From the NCBI GenBank assembly GCA_026989015.1, contig JALSKD010000177.1, positions 64,401 through 128,400 on the forward strand: DNA of 64,000 nucleotides, in the 5' to 3' direction. The translations under genes were made by a program, and so were the position numbers. The stretch's first letter is position 1. The number at the start of each line of letters is the position of its first letter. The notes beneath the pieces were generated by a model. The model was not told the origin of the DNA and searched no databases. It was given only the letters and a program-made list of their open reading frames with translations. This document shows positions 12,722 through 60,358 of this stretch, piece by piece. This DNA is from Gammaproteobacteria bacterium. Lineage in GTDB: Bacteria; Pseudomonadota; Gammaproteobacteria; GCA-001735895.

Positions 12722-14077
12722 TCAGTCGTTCGGGAAGCGCAGGCGGACGCGCAGTCCACCCATCGGCGAGGCATCGAATTCCAGCTCCAGCTCGTAGGCA
12801 TCGACGATATCCCGCACCACCGCCAGGCCGATGCCCTGACCCTCCTGGCTCTGGTCGAGACGGCTGCCCCGCTTGAGGATCAGATCGCGCTGATCGGCAT
12901 CCAGCCCGTCGCCGTCGTCGTCGATGATCAGGGTGACGGCATCGTCGTCCTGCAGCACCTCGACATGCACCTGCTGATGACCATACTTGCAGGCATTGTC
13001 GATCAGGTTGCCGAGCAGCTCCAGCAGGTCACTCTCATCGAGGCGCAGCGGGCGGGTGGCCTCGCCCACCACCTCGATCTGCATGCCCTTGCGGCCATAG
13101 ACCTTGCGCAGCGCAGAGACCGTCTTTGCCAGCAGAGGCATCAGTTCCAGCGGCCGGGCCATCGCGGTACCGCCCAGCGTGGCGGCCCGTTGCAGCTGAT
13201 AGGAGACGATCTGGTTCATGCGGCCGGTCTGCTCGGCCAGGGTGTTCAGGTCCTCTTCGTTACAGGCCTGCTTCTCGCTCAGTCCCCGCAGCACCGCCAG
13301 CGGCGTCTTCAGGCTGTGTGCCAGATCGTCGAGCGCATGGCGGTAGCGCTCCATCTGATGCTGTTCGCGCTTGAGCAGGGCATTGAGGTTCTGGGTCAGC
13401 GGCTGGAGTTCGGCCGGATAGCGGCGTTCGAAGCGCTGCTGCCGCCCTTCCTCGATGGCGTGCACCTCTTCACCGATTTGCCGCAAGGGCTTGAGGCTCC
13501 AGCTCATGACCCGCCACATCACCAGCAGCAGGATGCCGATGGTGGCCGCCAGCCACAGCCACAGCGTTTGCCTGAAGCGGCGAAACTGGACCATATAGTC
13601 ACTGGCGTCCTTCCACAGCACGAGGGTATAGAGGTCGAGCTTGGCATGGACATTGGGCCAACGGATGCTGAAGGCGAGCTGAAACCAGTCGTCGCCCTCA
13701 TAGGTCACCTGCTTGAAACGCAACTGCTCGGGGCGCAAGCCCTCCGGCGGGGGAAAGGGATCGGTCATCGACAGGGAACGCCAGATCTCGCGCAATCCGC
13801 CCTTCTCGTCCTGGGCGAACAGCTGGGCGTAGAGGCCGGACAGGGGATCGAACAGGGCGCCCTCGAACAGACGCTCGTCGGCGACGGTGATGCTCAGCCC
13901 GCTGGCGTCGCGGTCCACCGCGGCGAGAATGCTGTACATCAGCGCCTCGAGGTGACTGCGTTCCGCTTCCAGCATGCGTTTCGACACCGCCTGTTCCAGC
14001 GCCAGCGCGGTCAGCAGCATGAAACCGGCGAGCACCAGCAGGCTGCTCAGCAGCAGTCGGGTCTTGATCGAAGCCAT
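12722..14077 (-). CDS. Sensor histidine kinase (PhoQ/QseC-like)
   Basis: Two TM helices flank a periplasmic domain. H-box LAHSLKTPLAVL and a HATPase domain (NLIDNACKYG, GQGIGLAVV). Confidence 0.85.
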   Translation of the reverse strand: MASIKTRLLLSSLLVLAGFMLLTALALEQAVSKRMLEAERSHLEALMYSILAAVDRDASGLSITVADERLFEGALFDPLSGLYAQLFAQDEKGGLREIWRSLSMTDPFPPPEGLRPEQLRFKQVTYEGDDWFQLAFSIRWPNVHAKLDLYTLVLWKDASDYMVQFRRFRQTLWLWLAATIGILLLVMWRVMSWSLKPLRQIGEEVHAIEEGRQQRFERRYPAELQPLTQNLNALLKREQHQMERYRHALDDLAHSLKTPLAVLRGLSEKQACNEEDLNTLAEQTGRMNQIVSYQLQRAATLGGTAMARPLELMPLLAKTVSALRKVYGRKGMQIEVVGEATRPLRLDESDLLELLGNLIDNACKYGHQQVHVEVLQDDDAVTLIIDDDGDGLDADQRDLILKRGSRLDQSQEGQGIGLAVVRDIVDAYELELEFDASPMGGLRVRLRFPND

Positions 14078-14087
14078 CGGGTACGGC

Positions 14088-14777
14088 TCAGTTTTCGGGG
14101 CGCGCCGGCGGCAGGTTGAAACGGTAACCCCGTCCGCGCAGGGTCTCGATCGGCTGCAGGGTGCCGTCCGGGTCCAGCTTCAGCCGCAGACGGCGGATGA
14201 AGACCTCGATGACATTGCTGTCACGGTCGTCCTCGTCGTCATAGAGGTGTTCGGTCAGTACCGTCTTGGAGACCACTTCGCCCGCGTGCATCATCAGGTA
14301 TTCGAGCACCTTGTACTCGTAAGCGGTCAGTTCCACCTCCTCGTCATCGAGGGTCACCCGCTGGGTGGTCGGGTCCAGTTGCACCGGGCCACACTGAATG
14401 CGCGCGTCGGACCAGCCGGCCGCGCGGCGGATCAGCACCCGGATGCGGGCCATCATCTCTTCCTGATGGAAGGGCTTGACCAGGTAGTCGTCGGCGCCGG
14501 CATCGAGGCCTTCCACCTTGTCCTGCCAGCGGCCGCGGGCAGTGAGAATCAGAATCGGCAGTTGCGCGCCATCGGCGCGGATGCGGCGGATGATCTCGAG
14601 ACCGGACATCTGCGGCAGGCCCAGGTCGATGATGGCCACATCGGCCGGGTATTCCTGGGCCAGGTAGAGGCCGTCAACGCCATTGTCGGCCGTATCTACG
14701 GCAAAGCCTTCCTGCTTGAGGCGCTCGACGATCTGCCGGTTGATGTCGGCATCGTCTTCGATCACGATGGCTCTCAT
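14088..14777 (-). CDS. OmpR-family response regulator
   Basis: REC domain (MRAIVIEDDADI...DLGLPQMSG) plus a winged-helix domain. Lies upstream of the kinase on the same strand. Confidence 0.9.
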   Translation of the reverse strand: MRAIVIEDDADINRQIVERLKQEGFAVDTADNGVDGLYLAQEYPADVAIIDLGLPQMSGLEIIRRIRADGAQLPILILTARGRWQDKVEGLDAGADDYLVKPFHQEEMMARIRVLIRRAAGWSDARIQCGPVQLDPTTQRVTLDDEEVELTAYEYKVLEYLMMHAGEVVSKTVLTEHLYDDEDDRDSNVIEVFIRRLRLKLDPDGTLQPIETLRGRGYRFNLPPARPEN

Positions 14778-14823
14778 GGGCCGCTCCTGTCTTGAAACCG
14801 CACTATTCAAGCACAGAGCCCGT

Positions 14824-15399
14824 TCAAAAGACAGGCTCTACCCGCACCCGCAGCCGGATCCGCTTGCCCGGGTCGTAGGGCATGCGCACCGTGTACTTCT
14901 CGCCCTGGTAGCGGTAGGTGACCCGATAACCGTCGATCTCTTCCTCGTAGCGTACCCGTTCGGTGGTTTCGCAGACCTCCTCGACACGGGTATGTACCGA
15001 GCGGGTGGCCCGGGCACCGCCCGTACCGGCTGCGTCGTGACCCAGCTGAGCGCCGATGATGGTACCCACCGCGGTGGCGACCTTTTTGCCGCGGCCCCTG
15101 CCGATCTGGTGGCCAATGACGCCGCCGATGATCGCTCCAGCCAGGGTATTGCCGGCGGTGTTGCGCCGCTCGTAGCGGATCTCGCGCACTTCACGCACCG
15201 GTTCGCGCCAGCATTCGCTGACCGGCTCCACCACGCGGACCTCACGATACATTGGCGTCACCCGGATCACCTTTCCATAGACGGTACGCTCGACCGAATG
15301 GTGGCCCTTTTTCCAGCCATGATCACGGTCGGCCACAGCGCCGGTGCTCAGTGCCAACGCCAGGGTGCCCAGTAGCAGTGTCGTGTTCAGCGTCTTCAT
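14824..15399 (-). CDS. Glycine-zipper (2TM) outer-membrane protein
   Basis: Signal peptide and a GAIIGGVIGHQIGRGRG...GTIIGAQLG glycine-zipper segment. Confidence 0.6.
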   Translation of the reverse strand: MKTLNTTLLLGTLALALSTGAVADRDHGWKKGHHSVERTVYGKVIRVTPMYREVRVVEPVSECWREPVREVREIRYERRNTAGNTLAGAIIGGVIGHQIGRGRGKKVATAVGTIIGAQLGHDAAGTGGARATRSVHTRVEEVCETTERVRYEEEIDGYRVTYRYQGEKYTVRMPYDPGKRIRLRVRVEPVF

Positions 15400-15548
15400 C
15401 GTCGTTTCCTCGTTTGCGGACGGTATGCGAAGTCTAGGCGGGGGCGTCTGAACCGGTACTGAACCGTGGGCGGCTTGCCGGATGGCCGATCGGCAACTAT
15501 GATCGGTGGATCGGTTCTTCCAGGGCGGCGAGGTCGCCCACGGCTCTC

Positions 15549-43728: not shown

Positions 43729-46251
43729 CTACAGCCGATCGAGCAGTTCGCCTTCCCGCGGCAGCGCGCGGGGCCGCGCAATGCCGTAGCCCTGGGCAAA
43801 ATCCACACCCAGTTCCTTCAGCGCCTGCAGGATGGCATCGTCCTCGACGAACTCGGCGATGGTGCGCAGCTTGAGCACGCTGCCGATGTTGTGGATCGAT
43901 TCCACCATCGCCCGATCGATGTCGTCTTCCACCATGTCCTTGACGAAAGCGCCGTCGATCTTCAGGTAATCCACCCGCAATGACTTCAGGTAGGCGAAGG
44001 AGCTGAGCCCACTGCCGAAATCGTCCAGCGCGAAGCGGCAACCCAGCTCGCGCAGCTCGTCCATGAACAGCTGGGCCTGGGACAGGTTGCTGATGGCCGC
44101 GGTCTCCGTGATCTCGAAGCAGATGTGGTCGGCGGCGATGGCGTGCTCGTCGATGAGCTGCTTGACGCGGTAAAGCAGGCTCTCGTCGGCCAGCGACTGC
44201 CCGGACAGGTTGATCGCGAACACCGCCTCGGCACGATGATCCCAATGCGCCTCGATCCAGGTGAACAGCCGTTCGATCACCCACAGATCGATCTTCGACA
44301 TCAGCTGGTAACGCTCGGCCGAGGTGATGAAGGCTCCGGGCGGTATCAGCTCGCCGTCTTCGGAAACCATGCGGATGAGGATTTCGTAATGCAGCGGATC
44401 GCGGTCATCGGCGATCGGCACGATCGGCTGGTAGTGCAATTCGAAGCGGTCCTCGTCGAGGGCATTCTGGATGCGCACCAGCCAATGCGCCTCGCCGCGC
44501 CGCTGGGAGATCTCGACATCGTTCGGGCTGTAGATGTGCACCCGATTGCGCCCCGCGTCCTTGGCCGCGTAACAGGCCGAGTCGGCGGCCTTGAACACCT
44601 CGTCCATGTCCGGGCTGTGGGCGTCCACCATCACCAGTCCGACGCTGATGCCAACCTGGAAGGACTGATCCTGCCAGCCGAAGCGGAAATCCTCCACCGC
44701 CATGCGGATGTTCTCGGCCACATTCACCGCCGGACCCAACTCGCATTCGCTGAGGATGATCGCGAACTCGTCCCCGCCCAGCCGCGCCAGCGTATCGGCG
44801 CCTCGGATCTTGGAACGGAAGATGTCGGAAAGCTGGCGCAACAGCTCGTCACCGGCGGCATGGCCGCAGGTGTCGTTGACCACCTTGAACTTGTCCAGAT
44901 CCATGAAACACAGGCAGTGTTCGGTGCCTTCCTCGCGGGCGGTGTCGATCACCTTCTCCAGCCGCCGCTCGAACTCGCGGCGGTTGACCAGCCCGGTCAG
45001 CTCGTCGTGGGTCGCCTGCCATGAAAGCCGGTTGGCCAGACGGTGCGACTTGCTCACATCGCGCAGGATCAGCACCGCGCCTATGGTGTCACCGATCGCG
45101 TTGTGGCGCGGCGTCGCCACCTGGTGGATGACCCGCTGCTCCCCCTGCTTGTCGATGAGCACATCGCCGGATACCGAATCCACCTGCTTGCCGCTCTCGA
45201 TGCAGGCAAACACCGGCAGTTGCTTGTTGTCGGACTCGATGGTGATCACCCGGTCGATGCGCTGACCCAGCAATTCCTGCTCGTCGTAGCCGGTCAGCTT
45301 CAGGGCCGCCGGGTTGATGTAGGTGATCTGGCCGATGATGTCGGTGGTGATCACCCCATCGGCGATACAGGAAAGGGTGACCTGGGCCTGTTCCTTTTCC
45401 CGGTACAGCGCTTCCTCGAAGGCCTGGCGCTCGGTGATGTCCTTGATGGTAACGATATACTGCCGGTCCTCGCCCTTCAGAATGCTGCTCACGGCCAGTT
45501 CGGCATGGAACAGCTCACCGCCTTTCTTCAGCCCCTTGACCGTCTGCAGGTAATCCAGCGCCGCGAGACCGTCATCGGAGTGGATCATCTGCTCGACGCG
45601 CCGGTTGTGCGGCGACGGCAGCAGCATGCCCACCGGCTTGCCGAGCACCTCGTACTGATCGTAGCCGAACATCTTCTGCGCCGAGCGGTAGAAACTGCTG
45701 ATGCGCCCCATGCGGTTGAGGATGACCACCGCATCGAGGGTATTGTCGAGCACCGTCTTGAGCTGGAACTCCTGCTCGCGGGAACGGGCGACGACGGTCT
45801 CCAGCTCGAACAGGGTGCGCTTGAGAAACTGCTCGTGGCGGATTCGCTGACGGGCATCGCTGATGCGCAAAAGGCATCCGGGTTCGCCGTCCGTGTTCAC
45901 CGGCGTCACCTCGATGCTGTGCGGCAGCGGCTGTCCGCCGGCCTCATCCTGTGATGTATCGAACAGCGGCAGACTGCAGCGGTGCAGGCGCGCCGACAGC
46001 AGCGAAGACAGGCCGGAGGCCAGCGCATCCCGGATCGCCTGTTGCAGTGGCTCGCCCAGATCGGCAAACCGTTCAGCCAGCGTGTGGCCATGCACCTGGG
46101 TGTCTTGCAGCCCGCTGTGTCGTTCCATCCACCGGTTCCACAGGCGTACCCGCGCATGGCGGTCGAGCAGTACGAGGCCCATACCGACCTCGTCGAGCAG
46201 CGCATGCGGCTCGGCCCGGAGCGCTTCGACGGACGGTTCGACGGCCGGCAT
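43729..46251 (-). CDS. PAS-PAS-PAS-GGDEF-EAL signalling protein
   Basis: Three PAS modules, an intact GGDEF (RLGGDEF) and an EAL domain (YEILIRM...DDFGSGLSS). Confidence 0.85.
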   Translation of the reverse strand: MPAVEPSVEALRAEPHALLDEVGMGLVLLDRHARVRLWNRWMERHSGLQDTQVHGHTLAERFADLGEPLQQAIRDALASGLSSLLSARLHRCSLPLFDTSQDEAGGQPLPHSIEVTPVNTDGEPGCLLRISDARQRIRHEQFLKRTLFELETVVARSREQEFQLKTVLDNTLDAVVILNRMGRISSFYRSAQKMFGYDQYEVLGKPVGMLLPSPHNRRVEQMIHSDDGLAALDYLQTVKGLKKGGELFHAELAVSSILKGEDRQYIVTIKDITERQAFEEALYREKEQAQVTLSCIADGVITTDIIGQITYINPAALKLTGYDEQELLGQRIDRVITIESDNKQLPVFACIESGKQVDSVSGDVLIDKQGEQRVIHQVATPRHNAIGDTIGAVLILRDVSKSHRLANRLSWQATHDELTGLVNRREFERRLEKVIDTAREEGTEHCLCFMDLDKFKVVNDTCGHAAGDELLRQLSDIFRSKIRGADTLARLGGDEFAIILSECELGPAVNVAENIRMAVEDFRFGWQDQSFQVGISVGLVMVDAHSPDMDEVFKAADSACYAAKDAGRNRVHIYSPNDVEISQRRGEAHWLVRIQNALDEDRFELHYQPIVPIADDRDPLHYEILIRMVSEDGELIPPGAFITSAERYQLMSKIDLWVIERLFTWIEAHWDHRAEAVFAINLSGQSLADESLLYRVKQLIDEHAIAADHICFEITETAAISNLSQAQLFMDELRELGCRFALDDFGSGLSSFAYLKSLRVDYLKIDGAFVKDMVEDDIDRAMVESIHNIGSVLKLRTIAEFVEDDAILQALKELGVDFAQGYGIARPRALPREGELLDRL

Positions 46252-46853
46252 CACGATACCCTCCCATGCACGGCCGGCGTCTTGATGGCTTGCCAGGGCG
46301 CACCGCACCAGAGCAGCCAGGCGCGGTCCCCGCGGCCAGAGTGTTCGATCCGCAGTTCGGCCAGCGTGGCGAGGCTGCTGTCGGCAGGCCGTGGCAGGGC
46401 TGTGCTCAGTGCGCCCGGACGCTCCCGCCAGAGACGCGGCGGCGCAGCGCCATCGATACCCGTGGTCAACTGCCCGTGGTGTTCCAGGCAACGGTTGATG
46501 ATGCGGTTGCCGATCTCGGTCAGGGCCTCCTCCTCCATCTCGGTCAGCACCTCAAGACGGATCTCCTCACCCAGCAGATGATGCAGCAGGTCGCGGGCAT
46601 CGCCCTCGGTGCAGAACCACAGCATCGTGCCCCGCTCCGCAGGACGCAGGCTCTGCGCCACGCACAGCAGATCGTGTTCAGCGGGCAGCGTATCGAACAG
46701 GCTGTCCCAGTCGCCGTGACGGCAACCCTGCAGATGAAATCCCGCCTCGCCGGGCACCGAAGCGGACAGCAGCGCGCCCGCCTCGGACAAGGCGAGCTGT
46801 GTCACCTGCTGAAACAGATGCTCCCTGTCGGGAGTGGCGGTTGGGCTGGACAC
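46251..46853 (-). CDS. CheX/CheC-like protein (single E-x2-N-x21-P motif)
   Basis: EEALTEIGNRIINRCLEHHGQLTTGIDGAAPP fits the CheC/CheX phosphatase motif. Apparent GTG start. Its stop overlaps the start of the downstream PAS-GGDEF-EAL gene. Confidence 0.45.
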   Translation of the reverse strand: MSSPTATPDREHLFQQVTQLALSEAGALLSASVPGEAGFHLQGCRHGDWDSLFDTLPAEHDLLCVAQSLRPAERGTMLWFCTEGDARDLLHHLLGEEIRLEVLTEMEEEALTEIGNRIINRCLEHHGQLTTGIDGAAPPRLWRERPGALSTALPRPADSSLATLAELRIEHSGRGDRAWLLWCGAPWQAIKTPAVHGRVS

Positions 46854-48919: not shown

Positions 48920-48963
48920 ACCCGATCAGTCCTCCCTATCCGACATCATGGCAGATGTCCTTC

Positions 48964-48988
48964 GGCCCGCCCCGCGGGCCGTTTTTTT
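48964..48988 (+). terminator. Rho-independent terminator after the peroxiredoxin gene
   Basis: GGCCCGC-ccc-GCGGGCC stem followed by GT7. Confidence 0.7.
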
Positions 48989-49250
48989 GCACAGGGAAGT
49001 GCTTATCCTGCGAGCGCAGGGACGCGCAGGAGCAGGGTTTGCACAGGGAGGTGCTTATGCCGCGAAGGCCAGGGAAGGCCGAGAGCGGCGCTTGCACAGG
49101 GGTGAGCCACGACCGTCTTGCCAGTGGCAAGACGCAGCGTAGGCGAACGCCCGGACAGGGTGAGTCATGACCGTTCTGCCAGTGGCAGAACGCAGCATAG
49201 ACGAACGCCCGGACAGGAAGTCCGGGCTGGATCGACAGACCAGGGAAGGT
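48989..49250 (+). repeat. Array of about 5 degenerate tandem units (period 53-61 bp), each with short GC stems whose loops are AGGGAA, AGGGAG or AGGAA
   Basis: Hairpins: GCAC-AGGGAA-GTGC at 48989-49002; CCTGCG...AGGGA...CGCAGG at 49007-49030; GCAC-AGGGAG-GTGC at 49041-49054; GGCC-AGGGAA-GGCC at 49067-49080; GCCCGGAC-AGGAA-GTCCGGGC at 49207-49227; ACC-AGGGAA-GGT at 49239-49250. Also two 9-bp hairpins with AGU loops, at 49114-49134 and 49172-49192. Confidence 0.7.
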
Positions 49251-49484
49251 TACCGACTCCGCAACCCACTGACGCCACCGCTACCGGAACAGCCCCACCA
49301 GCAAGGCCGAACCAACGCATCGTGGAACAGGCATCTAGCCACTGAAGGCGGACGCGGGTTTCGCGCCTGTTGACGGCAGCGCCCCGGTAGCCGGCGACGG
49401 TGCGGGACGCGAGTTCCTTTCTTTGCGGGTCCAAAGAAAGGAACCAAAGAAAAGACCCCCAGCCGCCCCGGCCTGCGGCTGCCC
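49106..49484 (+). repeat. Copy A of a 379-bp direct repeat
   Basis: About 97% identical to 49604-49982 (offset 498 bp). Contains two AGU-loop hairpins, GGA-loop hairpins, and a 13-bp hairpin GTTCCTTTCTTTG-cgggtc-CAAAGAAAGGAAC. Confidence 0.8.
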
Positions 49485-49603
49485 GGCCGTCAACCGCCCC
49501 GCACCGGCACGCCGCGATGCGCTCCCGGCGCAGCGCGGCTCACGCGGCGTCCTGCCGCGTGACCGGCACGGAACGGCCGCCGACCGGCGGGGCAGATGGG
49601 TTC

Positions 49604-49982
49604 GCCACGACCGTCTTGCCGGTGGCAAGACGCAGAGTGGGCGAACGCCGGGTCAGGGTGAGTCATGACCGTTCTGCCAGTGGCAGAACGCAGCATAGAC
49701 GAACGCCCGGACAGGAAGTCCGGGCTGGATCGACACACCAGGGAAGGTTACCGACTCCGCAACCCACTGACACCACCGCTACCGGAACAGCCCCACCAGC
49801 AAGGCCGAACCAACGCATCGCGGAACAGGCATCTAGCCACTGTAGGCGGACGCGGGTTTCGCGCCCGTTGACGACGGCGCCCCGGTAGCCGGCGACGGTG
49901 CGGGACGCGAGTTCCTTTCTTTGCGGGTCCAAAGAAAAGAACCAAAGAAAAGACCCCCAGCCGCCCCGGCCTGCGGCTGCCC
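49604..49982 (+). repeat. Copy B of the 379-bp direct repeat
   Basis: See copy A. The 119-bp spacer between copies and the flanks are unique. Confidence 0.8.
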
Positions 49983-49999
49983 CGTAGCGGCAAAGCCGC

Positions 50000-50863
50000 T
50001 CATGCAAACAGCGTGCGTGCCAGTTCGCGCAGGCGCTCGCCCTGGTGCTCCAGTTCCTGCTGCAACGCCGTACAGGCATCGATCTCGAGACCGATCAGCG
50101 CTCTGCGGGGGTCGGCCTCGGCGCAGTTGACCCGCGCTCGGTGCATGCCGACCTGCCGAATCGCATAGCCGACGATCCACTCCATGGGGCGGCGCTGCGC
50201 TTCCCGGTATTCGCCGGTGAGCGCCATCGCCGCTTCCAGATCCTCGGGCAGTTTCCATTTCAGCGCCAGCAGTCCACCGGCATCGGCCTGATCGAAGCCG
50301 AGCCGCTCACGCAAAGCCTGGTGCAGGCTCAGCCGATCATCCGCTTCTTTCTGCCGCTGCACGGCTTCCGCGAATTCGTCGGGAAGGCGGTCGGCAATCC
50401 ACAACACGCCCAGATTGTGCAACAGTCCGCCGGCCCGGGCCGCCGCCGGTTCCAAGCGTTCGGACAGCGGGCTGGCGGCGCAGATCCTGGCCGAGGCTTC
50501 GGCGCAGAGCAAGGCGTCGGTCCAGTAGCGCTCCGCGTCAAAGGCGGGGCAGCGGCTGGGATCGAAGGCCGCGGCCACGGCCAACGCCAGGCTGGTACTG
50601 CGCACCACCGACAGGCCCAGGCGGGCACAGGCCTGCTCTACCGAGAGGATGGTCTCCACCGGCGAGGACCAGGCCGAATTGGCCAGTGCGATGAGGCGGC
50701 CGGCGATGGTCGGGAATTGTTCGATGACAGCGGCGATCTCGCGGAAATCCAGCTGCTCGTTGCTCAGTGCCCGCAACAGCATCGGCGTGTTGGAGGGCAA
50801 AACCGGCAGGCGTCCGCTGCCCAGGCGGTCCAGCAGGGCGGGAGGTTCGATGTGGCGGCTCAT
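50000..50863 (-). CDS. HDOD-domain signalling protein
   Basis: HDOD motifs (LPVLPSNTPMLLRAL...HNLG). Last gene of the TBDR/DUF4154/hybrid-kinase operon. Confidence 0.8.
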   Translation of the reverse strand: MSRHIEPPALLDRLGSGRLPVLPSNTPMLLRALSNEQLDFREIAAVIEQFPTIAGRLIALANSAWSSPVETILSVEQACARLGLSVVRSTSLALAVAAAFDPSRCPAFDAERYWTDALLCAEASARICAASPLSERLEPAAARAGGLLHNLGVLWIADRLPDEFAEAVQRQKEADDRLSLHQALRERLGFDQADAGGLLALKWKLPEDLEAAMALTGEYREAQRRPMEWIVGYAIRQVGMHRARVNCAEADPRRALIGLEIDACTALQQELEHQGERLRELARTLFA

Positions 50864-50882
50864 GGTCGCACTCCTGTTGTTG

Positions 50883-53800
50883 TCATTGTCTGTCGTTCTC
50901 GGGAAGAAAATTCCCGCGGGCCAGTTCCGGTATCTGCTCCGGCGGCACCGGACGGCTGAAGTAATAGCCCTGGATCGTATCGCAGCCCAGTCCCTGCAGG
51001 ACCCGCAGCTGTTCGACCTCTTCCACGCCCTCGGCGACCACAGTGTGCCCGAGCGCATGGGCCACGCCCACGATGGTGCCCAGCAGCACGGCCGAATCGC
51101 GATCCTGCAGCATGTCGCGGATGAACAGGCGGTCGATCTTCAGGCAATCGACGGGCAGGTATTTCAGCGAGGCGAGGGAGCTGTATCCGGTGCCGAAGTC
51201 ATCGATGGCGAGTTTGATGCCGAGATCGCGGATGCGTTCGAAGTTGTCCGGGTTGTCGCCACTGGTCTGCACCACGCTTTCGGTGACTTCCAGTTCCAGA
51301 CGCTCGGCCGGGAACCCGGTCTGCTGCAACACCGTCTGCAGGCTTTCGACCATGTCCGGGCTTTCGAACTGCAGCGGAGAGATGTTGACCGCAATGGTGA
51401 ATCCGTCGATGCCTTCCTGCTGCCAGCGCATGCCCTGACGGCAGGCCCGGTACAGCACCTGTTCGCCCAGTTGGCCGATGACGCCGATACGCTCGGCGAT
51501 GCCGATGAATTCCGCCGGCGATATCAGGCCGCGTTGGGGGTGATTCCAGCGCACCAGCGCCTCGACGCCGCTCATGCGGCCGGTCTCCAGACTCACCTGC
51601 GGCTGATAGTGCAACTCGAGTTGGCCTTCGGCCAGTGCCTGACGCAATTCCTGCTCCATCTGCAGGCGCTTCTGCGCCTTGGCGGTCAACTCCGGCTGAT
51701 AGAAGGCATAACGGTGCTTGCCCTCTTCCTTGGCCGCGTACATGGCGCTGTCGGCCGCCTTCAGCAGACCCTGCGCATCCATGCCGTCCTCGGGGTAGTA
51801 GGCAATGCCGATACTGGCGCGCGGATGCATCTTCTGGCCGCCCAGTTCGACGGCTTCATTGAGCGTTTGCAGGGTACGCCGGGCCACATCGGCGGCGTCA
51901 TACTGGTCACCGACATTGTCGACCAGGATGCAGAATTCATCGCCGGACAGGCGGGCCACGAAATCGGTCTCGCGCAGGATCGACTGCAGGCGCGTGGCGA
52001 CGATCTTCAACAGTTCGTCACCCACATCATGGCCCAGGCTGTCATTGACATCCTTGAAGCCGTCCAGGTCCAGGTACAGCAGGGCGAAGCGCTCGTCACG
52101 CCGGTGCGCCGCACGGATCACGTCTTCAAGGTGCTTGTGGAAATAGGCACGGCTGGCCAGCCCGGTCAGCACATCGGTATAGGCGAGCTGGCGGATGCGC
52201 TGCTCCGAAGCGCGTTGTTCGGTGATGTCCTGCACCGTGCCCAACACCACGCCGCTGTCGTCCGGAGCCAGTGACAGCAGCTGGTGCACCACCCGTTCCC
52301 GGTTGCGCCCGACCCTGAGACGGTAATCGGCGGACTGAATCTCGCCGCCGCGCGCCACCTCGTGAATCTGGTTGCGGATGTATTCCTGATCCTCTGGATG
52401 AACCCTCGACAGAAAATCCTCCAGCCCGTGAATGCCCGGCGCTTCACAGCAGTCGATCATCTGTGCCAGGTGCTCCGAGGTTTCGAAGCGGTCGCTTTGG
52501 GTCTGCCAGCGCCAGTAGCCGAGGCGTGCCAGTTTCTGCACGCTGGCCAGATGCTGCTGGTTCTCGTGCAGTTCGCGGGTGGTCTGCGCCACGCGCAGCT
52601 GAAAACGCATGCGGTGCACCAGCAGTGCCGGCGAAATCGGCTTGACGATGAAGCTGGAGGCGCCGGATTCAAAGGCCCGGTCCACCGATTCGATGTCGTC
52701 CAGGCCGGTGACCATCATCACCGGCAAAATCGGCCAGCGCGCATCGCGGCGGATCGCGCGGCAGGTTTCGAAACCGTCCTTGCCCGGCATCAGGGCATCG
52801 AGGATCACCAGATCGGGGGTCGATTCCTCCATCCGTTGCAGCGCCCGGTCGCCGCTGTCCGCCTCGATCACCCGCATGCCCTGGCTTTCCAGCAGCTCAC
52901 GGATCATGCCGCGGAAGGCGTTGTCGTCATCGACCAGAAGGATCCGTGGCGCGGTGTCATCGGCCGCCGGGGAGACGGTGGCCCCGCCCTTGCGGTTGAC
53001 CGTGTCCGGCAGCCAGTCGCTGCGCAAGCGCTGCTGCAGATCCGGCCAGCCTTCGTGTAAAGCCTTCAGCAGTGCATCCAGCCCGTCGAGCTGGCCAAGA
53101 CGGGCCTGATGTTCCAGCTCCCGGCAGCGCTCGGAGAAGGCCTTGAGGCCCAGGTTGGCGGAAGCGGATTTGAGGCCGTGGGCCAGCTGCCTCAGGCCAT
53201 CGGCATCGGCATCGCTCAGTGCCTGTTCCATGCGGGCCAGTGTCTCGGGGGTCTCGTCGAGGAAATGCCCCAGCGCCTTGCCGAGTATGTCTCGACCGGT
53301 ATCTTCCGAAAGCTGCCTGAGATCCAGCAGCGTGCCTTCGTCGATATCGGACACCGCGTCCGCGACCTCCGCGCTCGGGCTTGCGGCTTCCTCATCCGTG
53401 AGCCAGTGGCGCAAGCGGTCCTCAAGGGCCTGGCGCGAAAAGGGCTTGCTCAGGTAATCGTCCATGCCGGCCTCGGCGCACTGTTCCTGGATGCCCTTTT
53501 GCACATCGGCGGTGAGGGCGATCACCGGAACCCGCGCACGCTTCGATGCCTGTTCATCGGCACGGATCTTCCGCGTGGCCTCGAATCCGTCCATGCGCGG
53601 CATGTGGCAATCCATCAGGATCAGGTCGTAATCGCCCTGTTGCGCCCGTTCGACGGCTTCGATACCGTCGATCGCGACATCCACCTCAACACCGATCTGC
53701 ATCAGCATGCCGATGGCGACTTCCTGGTTGACCGGGTTGTCCTCGGCCAGCAGCACCCGTCCACCGAGTGCCTCTACCGTGTCCCGCCGCGTAGCCGAAC

Positions 53801-55760
53801 CCGGCGTAGCGGCCGGCTCGCCCATCAGATCGCAGAGGGCTTCATGCAGCTGCTTCTGCCGCACCGGTTTCTGCAGGTAGTCGGCAACGCCCTGTTCGCG
53901 CGCCTTGCGGCTGTCCATATCCAGCTGCGTGGAGCTGAGCATGACCACCCGCGGTTGACTGAGTCCGGATTCGCGCCGGATAGCTGCCACCAGCTCCAGC
54001 CCGTCCATGTCCGGCATGTGCAGGTCGGACAGAACCAGCTCGAAGGGATCGCCGTCGGCATCGGCCTCGCGCAGGCGTTCCAGTGCCTTGAGGGCACTGT
54101 CGACGCTTTCCGGACGCATCCCCCAACTGCGCGCATGGTCTCCGAAGATCTGACGGTTGACCGGGTGATCATCGACGATCAGCACGCGCACAGAGTCGAG
54201 CAATTGCGGACAGCGGTTGGCGCCCTGGCGGGTTTCCGCCGTACCCAGCAGCAGCTCGAAGGCGAAACAGGCGCCCTCGCCCGGCCTGCTGTCGAGCCGG
54301 ATCTGCCCGCCCATCAGCCTTACCAGGCGCTGGGCGATGGCGAGGCCGAGGCCGGTACCCCCGAAGCGGCGGGTGGTGGAGCCGTCGGCCTGGCTGAAGG
54401 CCTCGAAGATGCGCTGCTGCTTGTCGGGGTCGATACCGATGCCGGTATCACAGACCTCGAAACCGATCCGCACCCGTTCGCCGCTGTCCTCGAGCAGCCG
54501 AGCCGATAGCCGCACCTCGCCCTTGGCAGTGAACTTGACCGCGTTGCTGAGCAGATTGGACAGCACCTGACGCAGGCGGGTGGCGTCACCCCTTACCGTT
54601 TGCGGCAGATTGGCGGGCAGATCGGCCAGGGTCTCCAGTCCCTTGCGCATGGCCTGCCCGGCAAACAGTTCCAGGGTATCCTCGAGCAGGTCGCGCAGAT
54701 CGAAGGGGCGTTCCTCCAGTTCCAGCTTGCCGGCCTCGATCTTGGAAAAATCGAGAATGTCGTTGATGATTTCAAGCAGCGACTCGGCACTGCGGTGGGC
54801 AGTCAGCGCCAGGCGGTGGGCACGCACATCGAGACCGGCATCGAGCAACAATTCGGTCATCCCCAGCACGCCGTTCATCGGCGTGCGGATCTCGTGGCTC
54901 ATGGTGGCGAGGAATTCGCTCTTGGCACGGCTGGCCTGTTCGGCCTCCACCTTTGCCGCCATGAGACAGGCGGTGCGTTCCGATACCTTGTGTTCCAGGT
55001 TCTGACGATAGGACTCCAGTCGCCGGTCCCGTTCCTCGAGCTGCTCCAGCATCTCGTTGAAGCGGGCGGTCAGCAGGCCGATCTCGTCTTCCCCACCACT
55101 GGGCAGGCGCAGGCGATAGTCCTGCTCTTCGGCCACCTTCTCCATGCCCTTGACCAGATTCTCGACCGGCCCCGAGATGCTGCGCTGCAAACGCGAGGAC
55201 AGCCACCAGGCGCCGAGCATGAGGGTGCCGAACAGGGCCAGAATGAACAGAATCTGCTGGCCGATCTTGCGGTACAGCGGTTCCAGCGAGGCTTCGACGA
55301 ACAGGTAGCCGATCAGCCGTTGCTTGTGGTGCACCGGCACCGCCAGATCGTAATCATCGTCGTCATAACGCCGGGCGGCCACGCCCTGCTCGCGGACACG
55401 GTCGAGCAGTTGGCGGTCCTGGGCTTCCAGCATCTCGCCCGACCCCTCACGATGGTATTGGGCCAGCGGTTGACCGTCGGGGCGAAGCAGCCAGGCCATG
55501 CGCACATCCCGTTCCTGCCGCAGTGACTCCAGCAACTGTCGAGCAGTGACCGCATCCTCAAAGCTGAGCGCCGCGGTGGCATTGGTGGCGATGATGTGGG
55601 CAAGCGAGGTGAGGCGGTTTTCGAGGGCATTGCGGTAGCCCTGGACTTCCATCACCACGAACAGGGCCGAAGCGGCGATCAGGGCCACACCGGTCACCGT
55701 CAGGATCAGCCGTCGCAGACGACGCGACAGGCCGCCGTTTTTTTGTGCGTTGCGACTCAT
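50883..55760 (-). CDS. 1624-aa hybrid sensor kinase: TM / periplasmic YfiN-like sensor / HAMP-HisKA-HATPase / REC-REC-Hpt / REC-PAS-GGDEF(SGDEF)-EAL
   Basis: His[12 protein letters not shown]. HATPase LSNAVKFT...GGTGLGLAI. Three REC domains with conserved Asp. Hpt [16 protein letters not shown]-like domain reading RLSGDEF. EAL domain (EALVRW...[10 protein letters not shown]...KIDR). Confidence 0.9.
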
Positions 55761-56344
55761 GGCTGCGCCTCCCCGTCCCGTGATCGGGTTTCCACGATTT
55801 GCGACATCGACAGTAACGGCGCAGCGATACGCAGGCCGGCAGCTCGGGCGCGTTCGGGGTTGATGATGAAACCGATGCGCCCATCCTGCCGGTGAAACTG
55901 GATCATCCCGCCCTGCTCTGCAAACTCATCGGTTTCGCCCAGGGTCAGCATCGGCCAGCGGGAGAATTTCTCGAGTATCTGTCTCTGAAAGACCCGTTTT
56001 TCGGGGCTCAGATAGAGAATGCGGCAGGTTTCCGGGACCTGGTCGGATTGGGCATAATGGGCCGTTTCAATCGGTACATGGTCGATCTCCCGACCCTCCA
56101 GCCGATCCAGCGTGCCGTCGAAGGGATCGTCACCGAGCACGCAGATTGTGAACTGCCCGGACGCCGCTTCGGGCCATTCGATGAACTGGGCCAGCTTGTA
56201 GACAAGAGCCGCTTTCAAGGCCGGCTCAGCACTGCCCACGCCCGCCAGCGTCAAGACCGGCAGCAGCAACAGCAGCGGCCAGGCTGTGCGCAAATGCGGC
56301 AACAGCCGCCGCAAACGGCTCGGTGATGGTACGGCCCGGGTCAT
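55757..56344 (-). CDS. YfiR-like periplasmic protein (DUF4154)
   Basis: Signal peptide, then [17 protein letters not shown]...[11 protein letters not shown]...ILYLS, as in YfiR/DUF4154. Its stop overlaps the hybrid kinase start (ATGA). Confidence 0.7.
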
Positions 56345-56357
56345 CGGTGCAGCCGGC

Positions 56358-58445
56358 TCAGAAGTCCCAGCGCAGAGTGGCCAGCACGGAACGCTCGACA
56401 TCGGTATAGACGAAGATATTCTCCGCCCCGAACTCGGAATGGCGGTCCTTCAGCAGGTTGAAGGCCACCAGGCTCAGTTCAAGATCGTCTTTCTGCCAGG
56501 CCATGCGCAGGTTGAAGCGGGTATGGGCCGGAATGCTGCGCGGACGCGAAAAGCCGGAGCGGGACAAGGCATCCACATGCTGGATCCACAGGTCCATCGA
56601 CAGCTCGGGGGTAATGCTGTGCTGCGAGCGCAGCGACCACTGGTAGCGGGCGGAGGAGCCCTTGAGCACCGTGTCACCAAAGGCATCGGTACTGCTGTCA
56701 TCCACATCGGCGGACAGATCCAGCCAGCTGTAATTGGCACGCAGCCGCCAGTTCTCGTGCGCCTGCCAGTCCAGACTCAGTTCGGCACCCTGGCTGGTGG
56801 CATCGCGCAGGTTGTCGTAGGTCAGACTGTTGGGCGGGTAAAACCACTCTCCGGGGTTGAGCGGATTGGGTACCTGAAACGACAGCGATCCCGTCGCCTC
56901 GAAGGTCACCAGGTCGCTGTAACGGTTGTGGAACAGCGCGAGGTCGAGGGAGATGCGTTCGTCGAGGTGCCAACGGTAGCCCAGTTCGAGGGCGTCGAGG
57001 ATTTCGGACTTCACATCCGGGTTGCCTTCGACCCGCAACACGCCGGGAAACGGGTAATACACGGGATCCGCCGGATCCGGTGGCAACTGGTAGGTGACAA
57101 TGCTGCTGTTGGTTTCCAGCCGCGAGGGCGTACGCACGGCCCGCGAGGCGGCCAGCCACCAGGCATGGCGTGCATCCGGCGCCCACAGCAGACGCAGGCT
57201 GGGCTGGGTTTCGCTGCCGGTATAGTCGTTGTGCTCCCACTTGATGCCGGCGGTCAGCTTGAGGTCTTCGCGCCAGGCGAATTCGTCCTGAACGAAGAGG
57301 TTGTACAATTCCTGGATCTTCGGATCCTGGTAGAAAACGGTACGGAAGGTATCGTCGAAGTCGTCTTCGATGCGGCGGTAACCCAGGCCCCAGACCAGCT
57401 CATTGCGCCGGCCCAGCTTGAGGTTCTGGCTGAAGTCGATATCGAAGGTATCCACCCTTTGCCTGAGCACCTGTTCCTGCCGGTCACTGTGATCGACATA
57501 GACCTGAAAGCTGCTCTGGCGGTCGCCCTCGTCCCGTACCCAGCGCATCAACAGGTTGTAGCCTTCCGATTCAAAGGCATCCGGCAAAAAGGGGAGCAGG
57601 AACGGATGCTGTGGGTCGGGTGGCAGGTTGGCCGGATCGGCGGGATCCAGAATGAATTCCCTCAGCACCTGGTTCTCGTTCGCATGATAGGCATCGCCCT
57701 GCAGCGTCAGGCTGTCTTGTTCCGACAGCGCGAGATCGATGCGAAAGCCCATCTGCGTCTTGTCCCAGTCGTCACCGGCCTCTCCATTCAGATCGGGGCT
57801 GTAGCTGCTTTCACGGCGGTTGAACTTGGCATAGACCCGTCCGGCACTGCCTTCGTCCAGTGCAAAGCCATGCCGCAGCGTCACCAGCTGCTCTTCATTA
57901 CCGGCGCCGACGCCGACCAGTGTACCGACAGACTCGGCGGCCGGACGGGTGATGATGTTGATCACGCCATTGACCGCGTTGGCCCCCCAAATGGTGGAGC
58001 CCGGCCCGCGGATCACCTCGATGCGGTCGATGTCCTCAAGCAAGACATCCTGCACTTCCCAGTAGACGCCGGCATAGGTCGGCGTGTACACGCTGCGGCC
58101 GTCGATCAGTACCAGCAGCTTGTTGGCGAACTGACTGGCGAAGCCACGGCTGGAAATCGCCCATTTGTTGGCATCGATGCGGGCCACCTGGATACCCGGC
58201 GCCAGACGCAGCGCCTCGGGTATGCTGGTCACGCCGCTGCGGCGAATGTCGTCACGGGTGATGACAAAGATGGCAGCCGCGGAATCATTGACGCGCTGTT
58301 TCTTCCGGGCGACCGAGGTCACTTCCAGCGACAGCAGCTCCTGCAGGTCCAGCGACAGGTAGTCGTCCAGGGGATCGGCGGCGCGAGCGTGCGAGGCCGT
58401 CAGCAACACGACCAGGTAAAGCAGCGGGAACAGGTTTCGGGGCAT
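56358..58445 (-). CDS. TonB-dependent receptor (plug plus beta-barrel), 695 aa
   Basis: Signal peptide, plug domain (DSAAAIFVITRDDIRRSGVTSIPEALRLAPG), and a terminal aromatic residue ...WDF. Confidence 0.85.
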   Translation of the reverse strand: MPRNLFPLLYLVVLLTASHARAADPLDDYLSLDLQELLSLEVTSVARKKQRVNDSAAAIFVITRDDIRRSGVTSIPEALRLAPGIQVARIDANKWAISSRGFASQFANKLLVLIDGRSVYTPTYAGVYWEVQDVLLEDIDRIEVIRGPGSTIWGANAVNGVINIITRPAAESVGTLVGVGAGNEEQLVTLRHGFALDEGSAGRVYAKFNRRESSYSPDLNGEAGDDWDKTQMGFRIDLALSEQDSLTLQGDAYHANENQVLREFILDPADPANLPPDPQHPFLLPFLPDAFESEGYNLLMRWVRDEGDRQSSFQVYVDHSDRQEQVLRQRVDTFDIDFSQNLKLGRRNELVWGLGYRRIEDDFDDTFRTVFYQDPKIQELYNLFVQDEFAWREDLKLTAGIKWEHNDYTGSETQPSLRLLWAPDARHAWWLAASRAVRTPSRLETNSSIVTYQLPPDPADPVYYPFPGVLRVEGNPDVKSEILDALELGYRWHLDERISLDLALFHNRYSDLVTFEATGSLSFQVPNPLNPGEWFYPPNSLTYDNLRDATSQGAELSLDWQAHENWRLRANYSWLDLSADVDDSSTDAFGDTVLKGSSARYQWSLRSQHSITPELSMDLWIQHVDALSRSGFSRPRSIPAHTRFNLRMAWQKDDLELSLVAFNLLKDRHSEFGAENIFVYTDVERSVLATLRWDF

Positions 58446-58518
58446 GATTTCGACCGTGAGTTACTGTACTTCGGTCGAGTATAGAAGAGGCCCGCAAAAA
58501 CGCAGGACGGGCGGCGAA

Positions 58519-59209: not shown

Positions 59210-60358
59210 TCAGGTTTCGACAAGTTTCATCAGATGCTCCGGCAGCCGCCTCAGGTTGCTGGCGGTGCACAGCGGAATGTGCAACTCCCCGGCCCGCTTG
59301 CGGGCGCCGGGGGAGACGCGGTCGAAGGATATGAGCATGGCACGGCCATGCAGGCCACCGATGAGATCGCGCAGGCTGTCGAGCTTGTAGACGATGCCGT
59401 TGCCGGCCCCGCCGCCGGCCTTGCCCTGTATGCGGGCGGTCTTGCATTCGATGATATGGAGCCGGTTGTCGCGCAGAAACACCACATCCAGCTCGTTGTG
59501 TATGCGCTCGCCGCCACGCTCGCGCACCACCTTGACGCCATAGGCAATGTCGTGAATATGCGGATCCTGCTGGCGCAGACGGCGCAGTTCGTCGAACACC
59601 AGCTGCTCCAGCCAGCCGCCACTGGCGAAAAAGCGATCCGCCTCGCTGCGGAAATGGATGCGCCGGTTCTCCAGCCGCAGCACGCCGGCCTGCTGGAACA
59701 GATCCAGCAGCTCGGCCAGGCGCTCATCGATGTGCTTCAGCCGCGGCGTGACCCGCTTGTCGTCGATGCGCATGGCGAGATGATTGAGCATCGGGATGAC
59801 TTTCTTGAACCGCGGCGCGCTGGCGGCGATGCGCCGCGCGGCCTCGAGGGTTTCGGCGTGGCGGATGCTGCGCCCGGGCGCCTCGGCCACCTGCATGCCG
59901 TTGGCCTGCAGGTAGAGCTCGATGCGCATGCTATCCTCCAGCTCCGCCTGCGGCTGCTGCGGGTGCAGCCACAACAGGCTGTCGCTGTGCGGGTGCACAT
60001 AGAAGACCGGCAGATCGCGCTGGCGGAACACCTCGTAGGCGGCCATGCTCATCGGTTTGGTACCGCCGGTCGCATTGAGGGCAATGGAGGCGGCCAGTTC
60101 GGGGCGGCGGTCGAGAAAACCGGCCACGCGCTCCCGGATATGGGGGATGTTCCAGGCATCGTCGATGTCGAGCAGCTCGCATCCGGCCCTGCCCTCCAGC
60201 GCCTGACGCAGCCATTCGGCGTGCTGGCGCATGGCCGGGCTGACCAGCAGCACCACCCGCCGCGGCGCGAAGCGCCGGTCCAGCACCGGTGTCAGGTTGG
60301 GCACCGGCTGGTTGGAGACGAGGCAGAGATGGGTTTCGGGCTGCATGCTGTTGCGCAT
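59210..60358 (-). CDS. Card1/Can2-like protein: N-terminal CARF domain plus C-terminal PD-(D/E)xK nuclease (DUF1887-like)
   Basis: CARF-like N-terminus (LCLVSNQPVPNLTPVL...LNATGGTKPMSMAAYEVF). C-terminal ELDVVFLRDNRLHIIECKT gives D...ExK. No cas genes or cyclase genes nearby. Confidence 0.55.
   Translation of the reverse strand: MRNSMQPETHLCLVSNQPVPNLTPVLDRRFAPRRVVLLVSPAMRQHAEWLRQALEGRAGCELLDIDDAWNIPHIRERVAGFLDRRPELAASIALNATGGTKPMSMAAYEVFRQRDLPVFYVHPHSDSLLWLHPQQPQAELEDSMRIELYLQANGMQVAEAPGRSIRHAETLEAARRIAASAPRFKKVIPMLNHLAMRIDDKRVTPRLKHIDERLAELLDLFQQAGVLRLENRRIHFRSEADRFFASGGWLEQLVFDELRRLRQQDPHIHDIAYGVKVVRERGGERIHNELDVVFLRDNRLHIIECKTARIQGKAGGGAGNGIVYKLDSLRDLIGGLHGRAMLISFDRVSPGARKRAGELHIPLCTASNLRRLPEHLMKLVET

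Follow-up and report, generated by a model that had tools for sequence, protein, structure and literature searches.

The window analysed here is a 64,000-nt stretch of the genome of a gammaproteobacterium (assembly GCA_026989015.1, contig JALSKD010000177.1, positions 64,401 to 128,400 of the forward strand; coordinates below are those of the window). Between positions 50000 and 58445, its minus strand carries four consecutive genes, which encode a TonB-dependent receptor (TBDR; 56358..58445, 695 aa), a YfiR-like protein of the DUF4154 family (55757..56344, 195 aa), a giant hybrid histidine kinase (50883..55760, 1625 aa) and an HDOD protein (50000..50863, 287 aa). A preliminary annotation made from the letters alone (hereafter the sequence-only reading) had placed four tightly linked genes exactly here, and all of them are present as intact open reading frames (ORFs). 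We estimate a probability of roughly 0.6 that the TBDR, the YfiR-like protein and the CHASE8 sensor at the N-terminus of the kinase represent a widespread envelope-spanning module with a dedicated receptor, to which an unusually long output is attached in this organism.

The genes are separated by very little DNA. The TBDR stop and the DUF4154 start are 13 nt apart, the DUF4154 stop and the kinase start share a 4-nt ATGA overlap, as had been described, and 19 nt lie between the kinase stop and the ATG of the HDOD gene, with an AGGAG ribosome-binding site in front of the latter. The two gaps had been given as 14 and 20 nt, so the tight linkage stands with slightly corrected distances. For the DUF4154 gene we use the ATG that yields a signal peptide, as a longer ORF starting at 56401 would run into the upstream gene. 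An independent gene caller returned the same four products on an identical metagenome contig (ENA ERZ27262642, 145.8 kb).

Upstream, a 73-nt intergenic stretch (58446..58518, minus strand) follows the stop codon of a beta-carbonic anhydrase gene and presumably contains the operon promoter. About 32 nt ahead of the ATG of the TBDR gene it has the hexamer TATACT, and a sigma-70 consensus scan of this strand called no promoter site in the TBDR upstream region. A weak terminator-like hairpin in the same stretch (58506..58491) is assigned to the carbonic anhydrase gene. Downstream, a GC-rich terminator-like hairpin with a T-rich tail (49958..49979, minus strand), recognised by consensus match only, starts 20 nt past the HDOD stop and is the likely 3' end of the operon. 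Synteny breaks at both operon ends and the block recurs in at least four unrelated flanking contexts. The tight spacing, the terminator-like hairpin and the synteny breaks at both ends thus support the view that the four genes behave as one unit.

A Canonical Receptor With a Conserved N-Terminal Segment

The product of the first gene matches the Pfam families Plug (2.1e-21) and TonB_dep_Rec_b-barrel (3.8e-36), as well as the NCBIfam model NF053590 ("TOL_0244 family TonB-dependent receptor") along profile positions 4-604 of 604 with 651.7 bits (cut-off 645). Its signal peptide (aa 1-22, ending ARA/AD) is followed by a plug (aa 52-161) and a 22-strand barrel, and the chain ends in ...RWDF with a final phenylalanine. 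The AlphaFold2 (AF2) model shows a canonical plugged barrel (predicted local distance difference test, pLDDT, 80.6). Cir, PirA, PfeA and BtuB are the nearest solved structures and share at most 18% identity with it, which is too little to infer the substrate from structure. All general hallmarks of a TonB-dependent transporter are therefore found in this protein (signal peptide, TonB box, plug, 22 strands, C-terminal aromatic residue), and a Pfam search for an STN signalling domain gave no match at E ≤ 0.01.

Signal peptide and plug are about 30 residues apart, and the intervening part is taken up mostly by a conserved segment (aa 29-47, YLSLDLQELLSLEVTSVAR; 58305..58361, minus strand) that consists of a short helix and a TonB-box-like strand, modelled by AF2 at residues 34-38 and 41-43, respectively. 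The TonB box, LEVTSVA, aligns with ETMVVTA of Cir. None of the solved TBDRs aligned to the protein extends upstream of the TonB box. The family consensus of the segment, L..LSLE.L...EVTS.SK, holds across 60 TBDRs of several phyla, and the motif is also present in more divergent receptors linked to DUF4154 genes. The extracellular loops of the family are poorly conserved between phyla, with alignment stretches at 0.23-0.36 identity to the consensus.

A Periplasmic Protein With the YfiR Fold

The 195-aa product of the second gene matches Pfam DUF4154 (PF13689) with an E-value of 1.6e-39. It has a signal peptide without a lipobox and is predicted to be periplasmic. Among NCBIfam models its best match is NF053591 ("TOL_0243 family YfiR-like periplasmic protein"), whose profile is fully covered at 96.7 bits (cut-off 125); the YfiR equivalog NF053586 gives 41 bits (cut-off 85). 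The only sequence matches in the PDB are the structures of Pseudomonas aeruginosa YfiR, at E about 2e-3. The relationship becomes clearer in the AF2 model, which was built from 30 homologues (pLDDT 84.9): the top 15 Foldseek matches are all YfiR, with TM-scores of 0.75-0.81 and root-mean-square deviations of 2.6-2.8 Å. The assignment of the small protein as YfiR-like, one of the points on which the sequence-only reading depended, is upheld by the DUF4154 match and the predicted fold alike.

Residues can be compared one by one with YfiR. The sole cysteine pair, C68/C107, aligns with C71/C110 of YfiR, and the positions of YfiR C145 and C152 are occupied by Ala142 and Gln149, so that the second disulfide is absent. 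A hydrophobic face near the C-terminus is retained (I157, F159, L177 and L178, corresponding to V160, F162, V180 and L181 of YfiR). Across the family alignment F159 is nearly invariant (≥90%) and L177 is invariant. In P. aeruginosa, the YfiN-binding face of YfiR has been mapped genetically to C-terminal hydrophobic residues around V160, F162 and L183 (PMC3375315).

The family to which the protein belongs is very large, with 29,635 DUF4154 cluster representatives at E ≤ 0.001, and some of the best of these, 340-546 aa long, contain two or three DUF4154 domains in tandem (P0216-P0223, P0240, P0247). The next-best structural match after YfiR is a 155-aa single-domain "substrate-binding protein" of Rhodothermus marinus (PDB 5z6v, 6k1x, 8wgl). 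As Malone et al. list Rhodothermus among the distant hosts of YfiNR, the crystallised protein may be an overlooked member of the YfiR-like group. A PADLOC scan gave no match for the YfiR-like protein or for the HDOD protein.

A Giant Kinase With a YfiN-Type Sensor

The third gene product is assigned to the inner membrane, and its domain order is TM1, CHASE8, TM2, HAMP, HisKA/HATPase, REC, REC, Hpt, REC, PAS, GGDEF and EAL, where TM denotes a transmembrane helix, REC a receiver and Hpt a histidine phosphotransfer domain. CHASE8 (2.2e-18), HAMP, HisKA, HATPase_c, three Response_reg stretches, Hpt, GGDEF and EAL all exceed their Pfam cut-offs. The domain families that the sequence-only reading had named for the four proteins were thereby recovered above the curated thresholds with the exception of PAS, for which PAS_3 is marginal (24.5 bits, cut-off 25.6).

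The periplasmic CHASE8 domain (aa 43-155; 55296..55634, minus strand; 66.8 bits, cut-off 27) is flanked in the hydropathy profile by membrane helices at residues 15-42 (TM1) and 166-189 (TM2). It contains the motif AALSF (aa 63-67, nt 55560-55574), the equivalent of the exposed AAVVF motif to which the YfiR-binding site of YfiN has been mapped genetically (PMC3375315). AALSF is the best-conserved element in 72 aligned CHASE8 domains from DUF4154-linked sensors, with F67 retained in 68, D69 in 64 and A64 in 58 of them. The N-terminal 259 residues match the NCBIfam DgcN/YfiN model at 5.5e-30 (104.5 bits; profile positions 4-238 against aa 11-258), and their best NCBIfam match is NF053592, named "sensor histidine kinase, YfiR-like protein-associated" (157.2 bits, cut-off 194; profile positions 3-222 of 223). 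Judging from these matches and from the motif, the TM-CHASE8-TM-HAMP module is homologous to that of YfiN, and the resemblance between the periplasmic part of the kinase and the YfiN sensor that had been claimed from sequence alone is borne out.

The motifs of the catalytic part are intact. The HisKA and HATPase_c core (aa 279-505; 54246..54926, minus strand) has the H-box SHEIRTP, the N-box and the G1 and G2 boxes, and the adjoining phosphorelay segment (52608..54173, minus strand) contains D579 in REC1, D717 in REC2, H861 in Hpt and D988 in REC3. In the GGDEF domain (aa 1193-1349; 51714..52184, minus strand) the active-site motif reads SGDEF, against GG[DE]EF in active cyclases, and an intact RxxD I-site (RETD, 1263-1266) lies five residues ahead of it, a pattern kept in four of the five orthologues that were checked. 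The EAL domain (aa 1370-1604; 50949..51653, minus strand) has EALVR, DDFGTG, KID, EGVE and QGYYF and is predicted to be an active phosphodiesterase. As all catalytic and phospho-acceptor motifs are present, including the autophosphorylation site H289, the protein would form a complete His-Asp-His-Asp relay by itself, with a REC-PAS-GGDEF-EAL unit at its end. It has the features of an unorthodox hybrid kinase of the BarA/GacS/TorS/ArcB type, namely HisKA-HATPase, REC and Hpt in one chain with H289, D579/D717 and H861 intact.

The kinase is colinear from end to end with orthologues of 1625-1645 aa (50-67% identity). Its best full-length NCBIfam models, BarA (546 bits, cut-off 890) and TorS (545 bits, cut-off 676.5), and the best matches of its C-terminal end, the phosphodiesterases DibA and PRK10060, are all below threshold. 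By these scores, it is an orthologue of no named kinase.

The Receptor Is the Conserved Neighbour of DUF4154 and CHASE8

To place the operon in context, we scanned one genome per species and obtained 232 DUF4154 relatives with the motif of the subfamily, of which the best 80 loci were taken with 10-kb flanks. ORFs were labelled with the domains found in the window and counted as neighbours within 6 kb. A TBDR is found in 73 of the 80 loci, in 66 of them directly adjacent to the DUF4154 gene, a CHASE8 sensor in 68, and both together in 63. Several of the exceptions are contigs that end close to the DUF4154 gene. The loci come from Gamma- and Alphaproteobacteria, Acidobacteriota, Gemmatimonadota, Planctomycetota (Scalindua), Desulfobacterota, Nitrospirota and Verrucomicrobiota, and the sensors carry histidine kinase outputs in 59 cases and GGDEF-EAL outputs in 6. 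A survey of DUF4154 neighbourhoods in related genomes, which the sequence-only reading had put forward as a check, thus speaks clearly for the proposed association.

The linked receptors belong mostly to one family, with tblastn E-values against the receptor of the window mostly of about 1e-92 to 1e-145, compared with ~1e-13 for unlinked TBDRs in the same loci. The reverse look-up gave the same picture: in Thalassolituus, Thiolapillus, one Thermodesulfobacteriota isolate and two metagenome-derived genomes, all five TBDR homologues are followed immediately downstream by DUF4154 and CHASE8 kinase genes. Several operons have two or three TBDR paralogues ahead of a single YfiR-like gene, and in genomes with two modules (L011/L020, L021/L032 and L029/L045) each module has its own TBDR. 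A tblastn search with E. coli YfiB as the single query, which a divergent OmpA-like partner could escape, gave no match at E ≤ 0.01 in 86 loci, and in the 64-kb window nothing better than E = 1.4. The view that the outer-membrane partner is a TBDR and not a YfiB therefore gains from both sides, since one TBDR family is the conserved neighbour and the YfiB search was negative. Altogether, it is strongly supported by these gene neighbourhoods that the link of the TBDR to the other two genes is not due to chance.

Moreover, the three envelope-exposed parts diverge together. Pairwise identities in 41 trios correlate with r = 0.89 between TBDR and YfiR-like protein, 0.95 between YfiR-like protein and CHASE8, and 0.89 between TBDR and CHASE8. 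Correlations of the envelope parts with the catalytic core of the same kinase are lower (r 0.68-0.74), and partial correlations controlling for the core remain at 0.79-0.89. This is suggestive of a co-divergence of the envelope-exposed parts beyond that of the kinase core.

Two apparent fusions of TBDR and DUF4154 in the Acidobacteriota metagenome-assembled genome MFD02581.bin.2.147 (L021, 8204-10549; L032, 2150-4843) were set aside as likely long-read frameshift errors because the junction lacks the last barrel strand and the start codon and signal peptide of the YfiR-like protein are retained. In Thermodesulfobacteriota bacterium B35 (GCA_046599375.1, L091, 7001-14564), TBDR, DUF4154 and a 1625-aa kinase are encoded in a row, with 49, 40 and 53% identity to the proteins of the window. 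These values are about as high as those of gammaproteobacterial orthologues, which suggests transfer of the whole module between phyla.

The Operon in Thalassolituus and What Was Known Before

The cultured bacterium Thalassolituus oleivorans MIL-1 carries the same operon. TOL_0244 to TOL_0241 (L088/L089) encode a TBDR, a DUF4154 protein, a 1645-aa kinase and an HDOD protein in the order seen in the window, and all four are colinear over their full length with the proteins described here (48, 39, 50 and 38% identity, respectively). In a proteomic study, the abundance of TOL_0244 on n-C28 was seven times that on Tween 80, and the authors interpreted it as an alkane uptake receptor with reference to OmpS (PMC6304351). 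According to the supplement of the same study, the 199-aa YfiR-like protein TOL_0243 was found on n-C28 alone, the level being low and not significant (PMC6304351). A gene for a 379-aa OprF/OmpA-type porin (6559-7698 in L088/L089) lies 300 nt upstream of TOL_0244. We considered this porin as a counterpart of YfiB and rejected it, as neither its size nor its type is that of YfiB and the other operons have no such gene beside them.

Parts of the module have been catalogued. Release 20 of NCBIfam contains NF053590 and NF053591 as consecutive models, with NF053592 as the third of the trio, and names and numbering suggest that curators built the models from this conserved neighbourhood. It was reported in 2012 that yfiR-yfiN pairs mostly occur without yfiB and feed into GGDEF-EAL, HPT or histidine kinase outputs (Malone et al., 2012; PMC3375315). 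The taxa of these YfiB-less pairs include Acidobacteria, Opitutus, Geobacter and Rhodothermus, and their hydrophobic contact residues are conserved; a TonB or receptor neighbour is not mentioned (PMC3375315). Our literature search found no description that links DUF4154 or YfiR to a TBDR and no published function for the NF053590-NF053592 families. A 2022 review on the sensing of cyclic di-GMP (c-di-GMP) refers to CHASE8 once and to YfiR and TonB not at all. The module is hence less new than the sequence-only reading had implied, as the YfiB-less cores of 2012 and the NCBIfam models precede it. It is real, conserved and catalogued but uncharacterised, and the operon of the window is an additional, well-preserved member.

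How the Module Might Work

In the mechanism that we favour, the C-terminal hydrophobic face of the YfiR-like protein would dock on the AALSF patch of CHASE8 and hold the kinase in one state, as suggested by the YfiBNR system and by the retained contact residues. The TBDR would provide the input, for which gene linkage is the argument: ligand binding or transport, dependent on TonB, might alter the amount of free YfiR-like protein. This could be achieved by a switch of partners, in which the ligand-loaded receptor exposes its N-terminal helix and TonB-box segment and, like YfiB, sequesters the YfiR-like protein at the outer membrane. There is a precedent for such a step in YfiB, whose N-terminal segment unwinds and then pairs as a β-strand with β7 of YfiR (PMC4655355). 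Perhaps the TBDR segment pairs with the edge strand of the YfiR-like protein in a similar manner. We regard capture by the receptor as a tentative proposal with somewhat less than even odds.

Inside the cell, the intact motifs would allow the kinase to autophosphorylate at H289 and to pass the phosphate via a receiver (D579 or D717) and Hpt H861 to D988 of REC3. REC3 might then decide how the SGDEF cyclase-type domain and the EAL phosphodiesterase are balanced, such that a signal from the envelope would be converted into c-di-GMP levels and a choice between motility and attachment. The HDOD protein would be a lineage-specific accessory at the c-di-GMP output end and stand outside the sensing core.

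Several observations weigh against the module as we read it. Three loci with full flanks (L009, L069 and L079) have DUF4154 and a sensor without a TBDR, and three others (L008, L020 and L052) have TBDR and DUF4154 without a recognisable sensor. No TBDR-DUF4154 fusion was found among the 150 best of the 29,635 DUF4154 cluster representatives. Common descent, near-duplicates among the loci (Spearman 0.62-0.68) and possibly shuffling of the kinase core are confounders of the co-divergence. The YfiR-like protein and the kinase N-terminus fall under the NCBIfam cut-offs of the named families. With respect to a YfiB-like capture, the missing C145-C152 disulfide matters most, because in YfiR it shapes the YfiB-binding surface and is essential for stability (PMC4655355). 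In addition, the YfiB-contacting residues E163 and I169 of YfiR are not conserved and correspond to I160 and A166. Finally, the receptor has the anatomy of an ordinary transporter and lacks a signalling domain.

The last point leads to the most serious alternative. As the TonB box, the plug and the 22 strands are all those of an ordinary transporter, import alone would be at least as natural a role for the TBDR: the receptor might import a substrate that is bound by the YfiR-like protein or by CHASE8 and changes their docking, in the manner of LuxP-LuxQ or TorT-TorS, and receptor and YfiR-like protein would never touch. YfiR itself is folded like a single lobe of a type I binding protein (PMC4655355), and the model of the YfiR-like protein also matches the Rhodothermus "substrate-binding protein" (5z6v/6k1x) and the L-Trp-bound structure 3lft. 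Two or three TBDR paralogues per YfiR-like gene are easily read as several import routes, and induction of the T. oleivorans receptor on a specific growth substrate points in the same direction. However, the poorly conserved extracellular loops argue against one common ligand, the conserved surface of the YfiR-like protein is its protein-docking face and not an obvious pocket, and the conserved helix ahead of the TonB box would be left unexplained. We consider relay of an imported ligand possible though somewhat doubtful; capture of the YfiR-like protein by the receptor is favoured, yet the two are about equally likely.

The receptor might also be nothing but co-expressed cargo, a nutrient receptor transcribed together with a YfiR-like protein and CHASE8 kinase that sense something else in the envelope, such as redox state through Cys68-Cys107 or general envelope stress. 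The equivalent Cys71-Cys110 pair of P. aeruginosa YfiR is redox-switchable (PMC4655355), co-transcription alone would yield the co-expression seen in T. oleivorans, and the few loci with a YfiR-like protein and sensor but no TBDR would be expected. A single dedicated receptor family from Acidobacteriota to Gammaproteobacteria would not be expected, nor would the TBDR follow the divergence of the periplasmic parts more closely than the kinase core does. TBDR/YfiR-like pairs also persist in loci without a nearby sensor, and where a genome has several modules, every one comes with a TBDR of its own, which makes this explanation improbable. The neighbourhood survey all but rules out that the four genes are adjacent by chance: they are spaced by 13, -4 and 19 nt, the block recurs in unrelated flanking contexts, and the trio is present in most surveyed loci across phyla and in every reverse look-up.

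If the receptor does capture the YfiR-like protein, this would answer what replaces YfiB in most YfiR-YfiN systems. That most such pairs lack YfiB has been known since 2012, and in the subfamily of the window the constant outer-membrane neighbour is a dedicated TBDR. On a broader scale, receptors without an STN domain might capture a YfiR-like inhibitor in at least eight phyla and thereby free CHASE8 kinases and c-di-GMP enzymes, which would amount to a second kind of TonB-dependent trans-envelope signalling. We consider this generalisation speculative and rather unlikely as it stands. Nevertheless, YfiR-like proteins may in many phyla be the route by which a dedicated TBDR family signals, and it becomes a testable question whether such a protein can connect a TBDR to histidine kinases and c-di-GMP enzymes with no FecA-type signalling domain. 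T. oleivorans MIL-1 is a suitable organism, as it is cultured, carries the same operon and has a known condition that induces the receptor (solid n-C28). The interpretation of TOL_0244 in alkane uptake merits a second look, because the receptor could belong to a circuit of surface attachment and c-di-GMP.

The HDOD Gene and Its c-di-GMP Context

The fourth gene product is a stand-alone cytoplasmic HDOD protein (Pfam HDOD 3.5e-37, 128.2 bits, cut-off 22.9) with relatives in the PDB (9qzk, 3m1t and 3ljx/MmoQ; HDOD matches 2.7e-15 to 1e-10). An HDOD gene lies 3' of the giant kinase in four of six such operons, namely those of the window, L003 (where the two genes overlap by 4 nt), T. oleivorans and L092. 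Thiolapillus and L091 lack it behind their orthologous kinases, and it was found in none of the 80 surveyed loci. The gene is thus a companion of the kinase-GGDEF-EAL form of the module and not of the sensing core, and a role of its product at the c-di-GMP output end would fit this gene distribution.

In L092 (ENA ERZ21939214, ctg11837l, 4950-15444), the operon consists of two paralogous TBDR genes, the DUF4154 gene, the gene of a 1636-aa kinase and the HDOD gene, and is placed between flgI-flgJ-flgK-flgL and flagellin genes. This placement is a hint that the output concerns motility. A second c-di-GMP protein of ~840-920 aa, with three PAS domains, GGDEF and EAL, is encoded 3.5 kb downstream of the operon in the window (43729-46491, minus strand). 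As it occupies the same position in L003, the neighbourhood can be described as rich in c-di-GMP turnover genes.

Flanking Features of the Window

The operon is preceded by genes for carbonic anhydrase, a Card1-like nuclease, alr and dnaB, and followed by those for AhpC and a thioredoxin-like protein. A stand-alone gene between alr and the gene for carbonic anhydrase (59210-60358, minus strand) encodes a 382-aa Card1/Can2-like protein with CARF and PD-(D/E)xK nuclease domains, which matches Pfam CARF_Card1 and Card1_endonuc as well as the PADLOC model CARF4--CARF_PDDEXK (1.7e-113). The gene looks like an inserted ancillary effector of the type III CRISPR kind because it is absent at the syntenic position of L003. 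There are no cas genes among its neighbours; the rest of the window was not searched for a CRISPR array or cas10.

On the other side, a gene-free stretch of 1.08 kb (48920-49999) contains an element of ~300-400 nt as a tandem duplicate (49094-49891) with a period of 498 nt and 95% identity. Each copy has several perfect palindromes (CGTTCTGCCAGTGGCAGAACG, CGTCTTGCCAGTGGCAAGACG, GTTCCTTTCTTTGCGGGTCCAAAGAAAGGAAC) and the same terminator-like hairpin at its end, so that the hairpin after the HDOD gene recurs inside the element at 49481..49460. The palindrome CGTTCTGCCAGTGGCAGAACG does not occur in the window outside the duplicated element. AT skew is unusually high here (0.30). Rfam gave nothing above the gathering score in the downstream intergenic region (best, M23 small RNA, 28.9 against 41.2). 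Only ~230 nt separate HDOD from the next gene in L003, and the duplicated element is thus best seen as an insertion.

Comparison With Known Systems

The operon most closely resembles the TOL_0244-TOL_0241 type, with which it shares gene order and architecture; its TBDR passes the family cut-off and its YfiR-like protein and kinase N-terminus stay below theirs. Among characterised systems, YfiBNR (TpbB) of P. aeruginosa and E. coli and HmsCDE of Yersinia pestis likewise have a DUF4154/YfiR-fold protein beside a TM-CHASE8-TM-HAMP sensor. With YfiBNR, the operon has in common the AAxxF patch, the C-terminal hydrophobic face, the equivalent of the C71-C110 pair and an outer-membrane partner in the operon. 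However, this partner is a 695-aa TonB-dependent barrel in the window, whereas YfiB is an OmpA/Pal-like lipoprotein of ~160 aa. The output is also different, as YfiN has a lone GGDEF domain and the window encodes a hybrid kinase with a four-step phosphorelay to GGDEF-EAL. Furthermore, the gene order is receptor, YfiR-like protein, sensor in the window and yfiR-yfiN-yfiB in YfiBNR.

TonB-dependent transducers such as FecA-FecR-FecI and FpvA-FpvR-PvdS have an N-terminal STN domain and relay their signal to a sigma factor. In contrast, the TBDR of the window has no STN domain and the putative relay leads to a histidine kinase and c-di-GMP enzymes instead of a sigma factor. No genes for an anti-sigma factor or an extracytoplasmic function (ECF) sigma factor are found among the neighbours of the operon. 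In binding-protein-dependent sensor kinases (LuxP-LuxQ, TorT-TorS, ChvE-VirA), a soluble periplasmic protein docks on the kinase. The window shares with them a periplasmic partner and a hybrid kinase with a REC-Hpt relay. Its partner, however, has the single-lobe YfiR fold and not two lobes, and a dedicated TBDR is part of the unit.

OmpS of Alcanivorax dieselolei is described as a TBDR-like outer-membrane protein for the detection of and response to alkanes (Wang and Shao, 2014, cited in PMC6304351) and is said to have 40.3% similarity to TOL_0244 (PMC6304351). The reported OmpS pathway involves chemotaxis and transcription and not a YfiR/CHASE8 kinase. From the YfiR-YfiN[PAS] cores as described by Malone et al. 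(2012), the difference is the conserved TBDR partner documented here.

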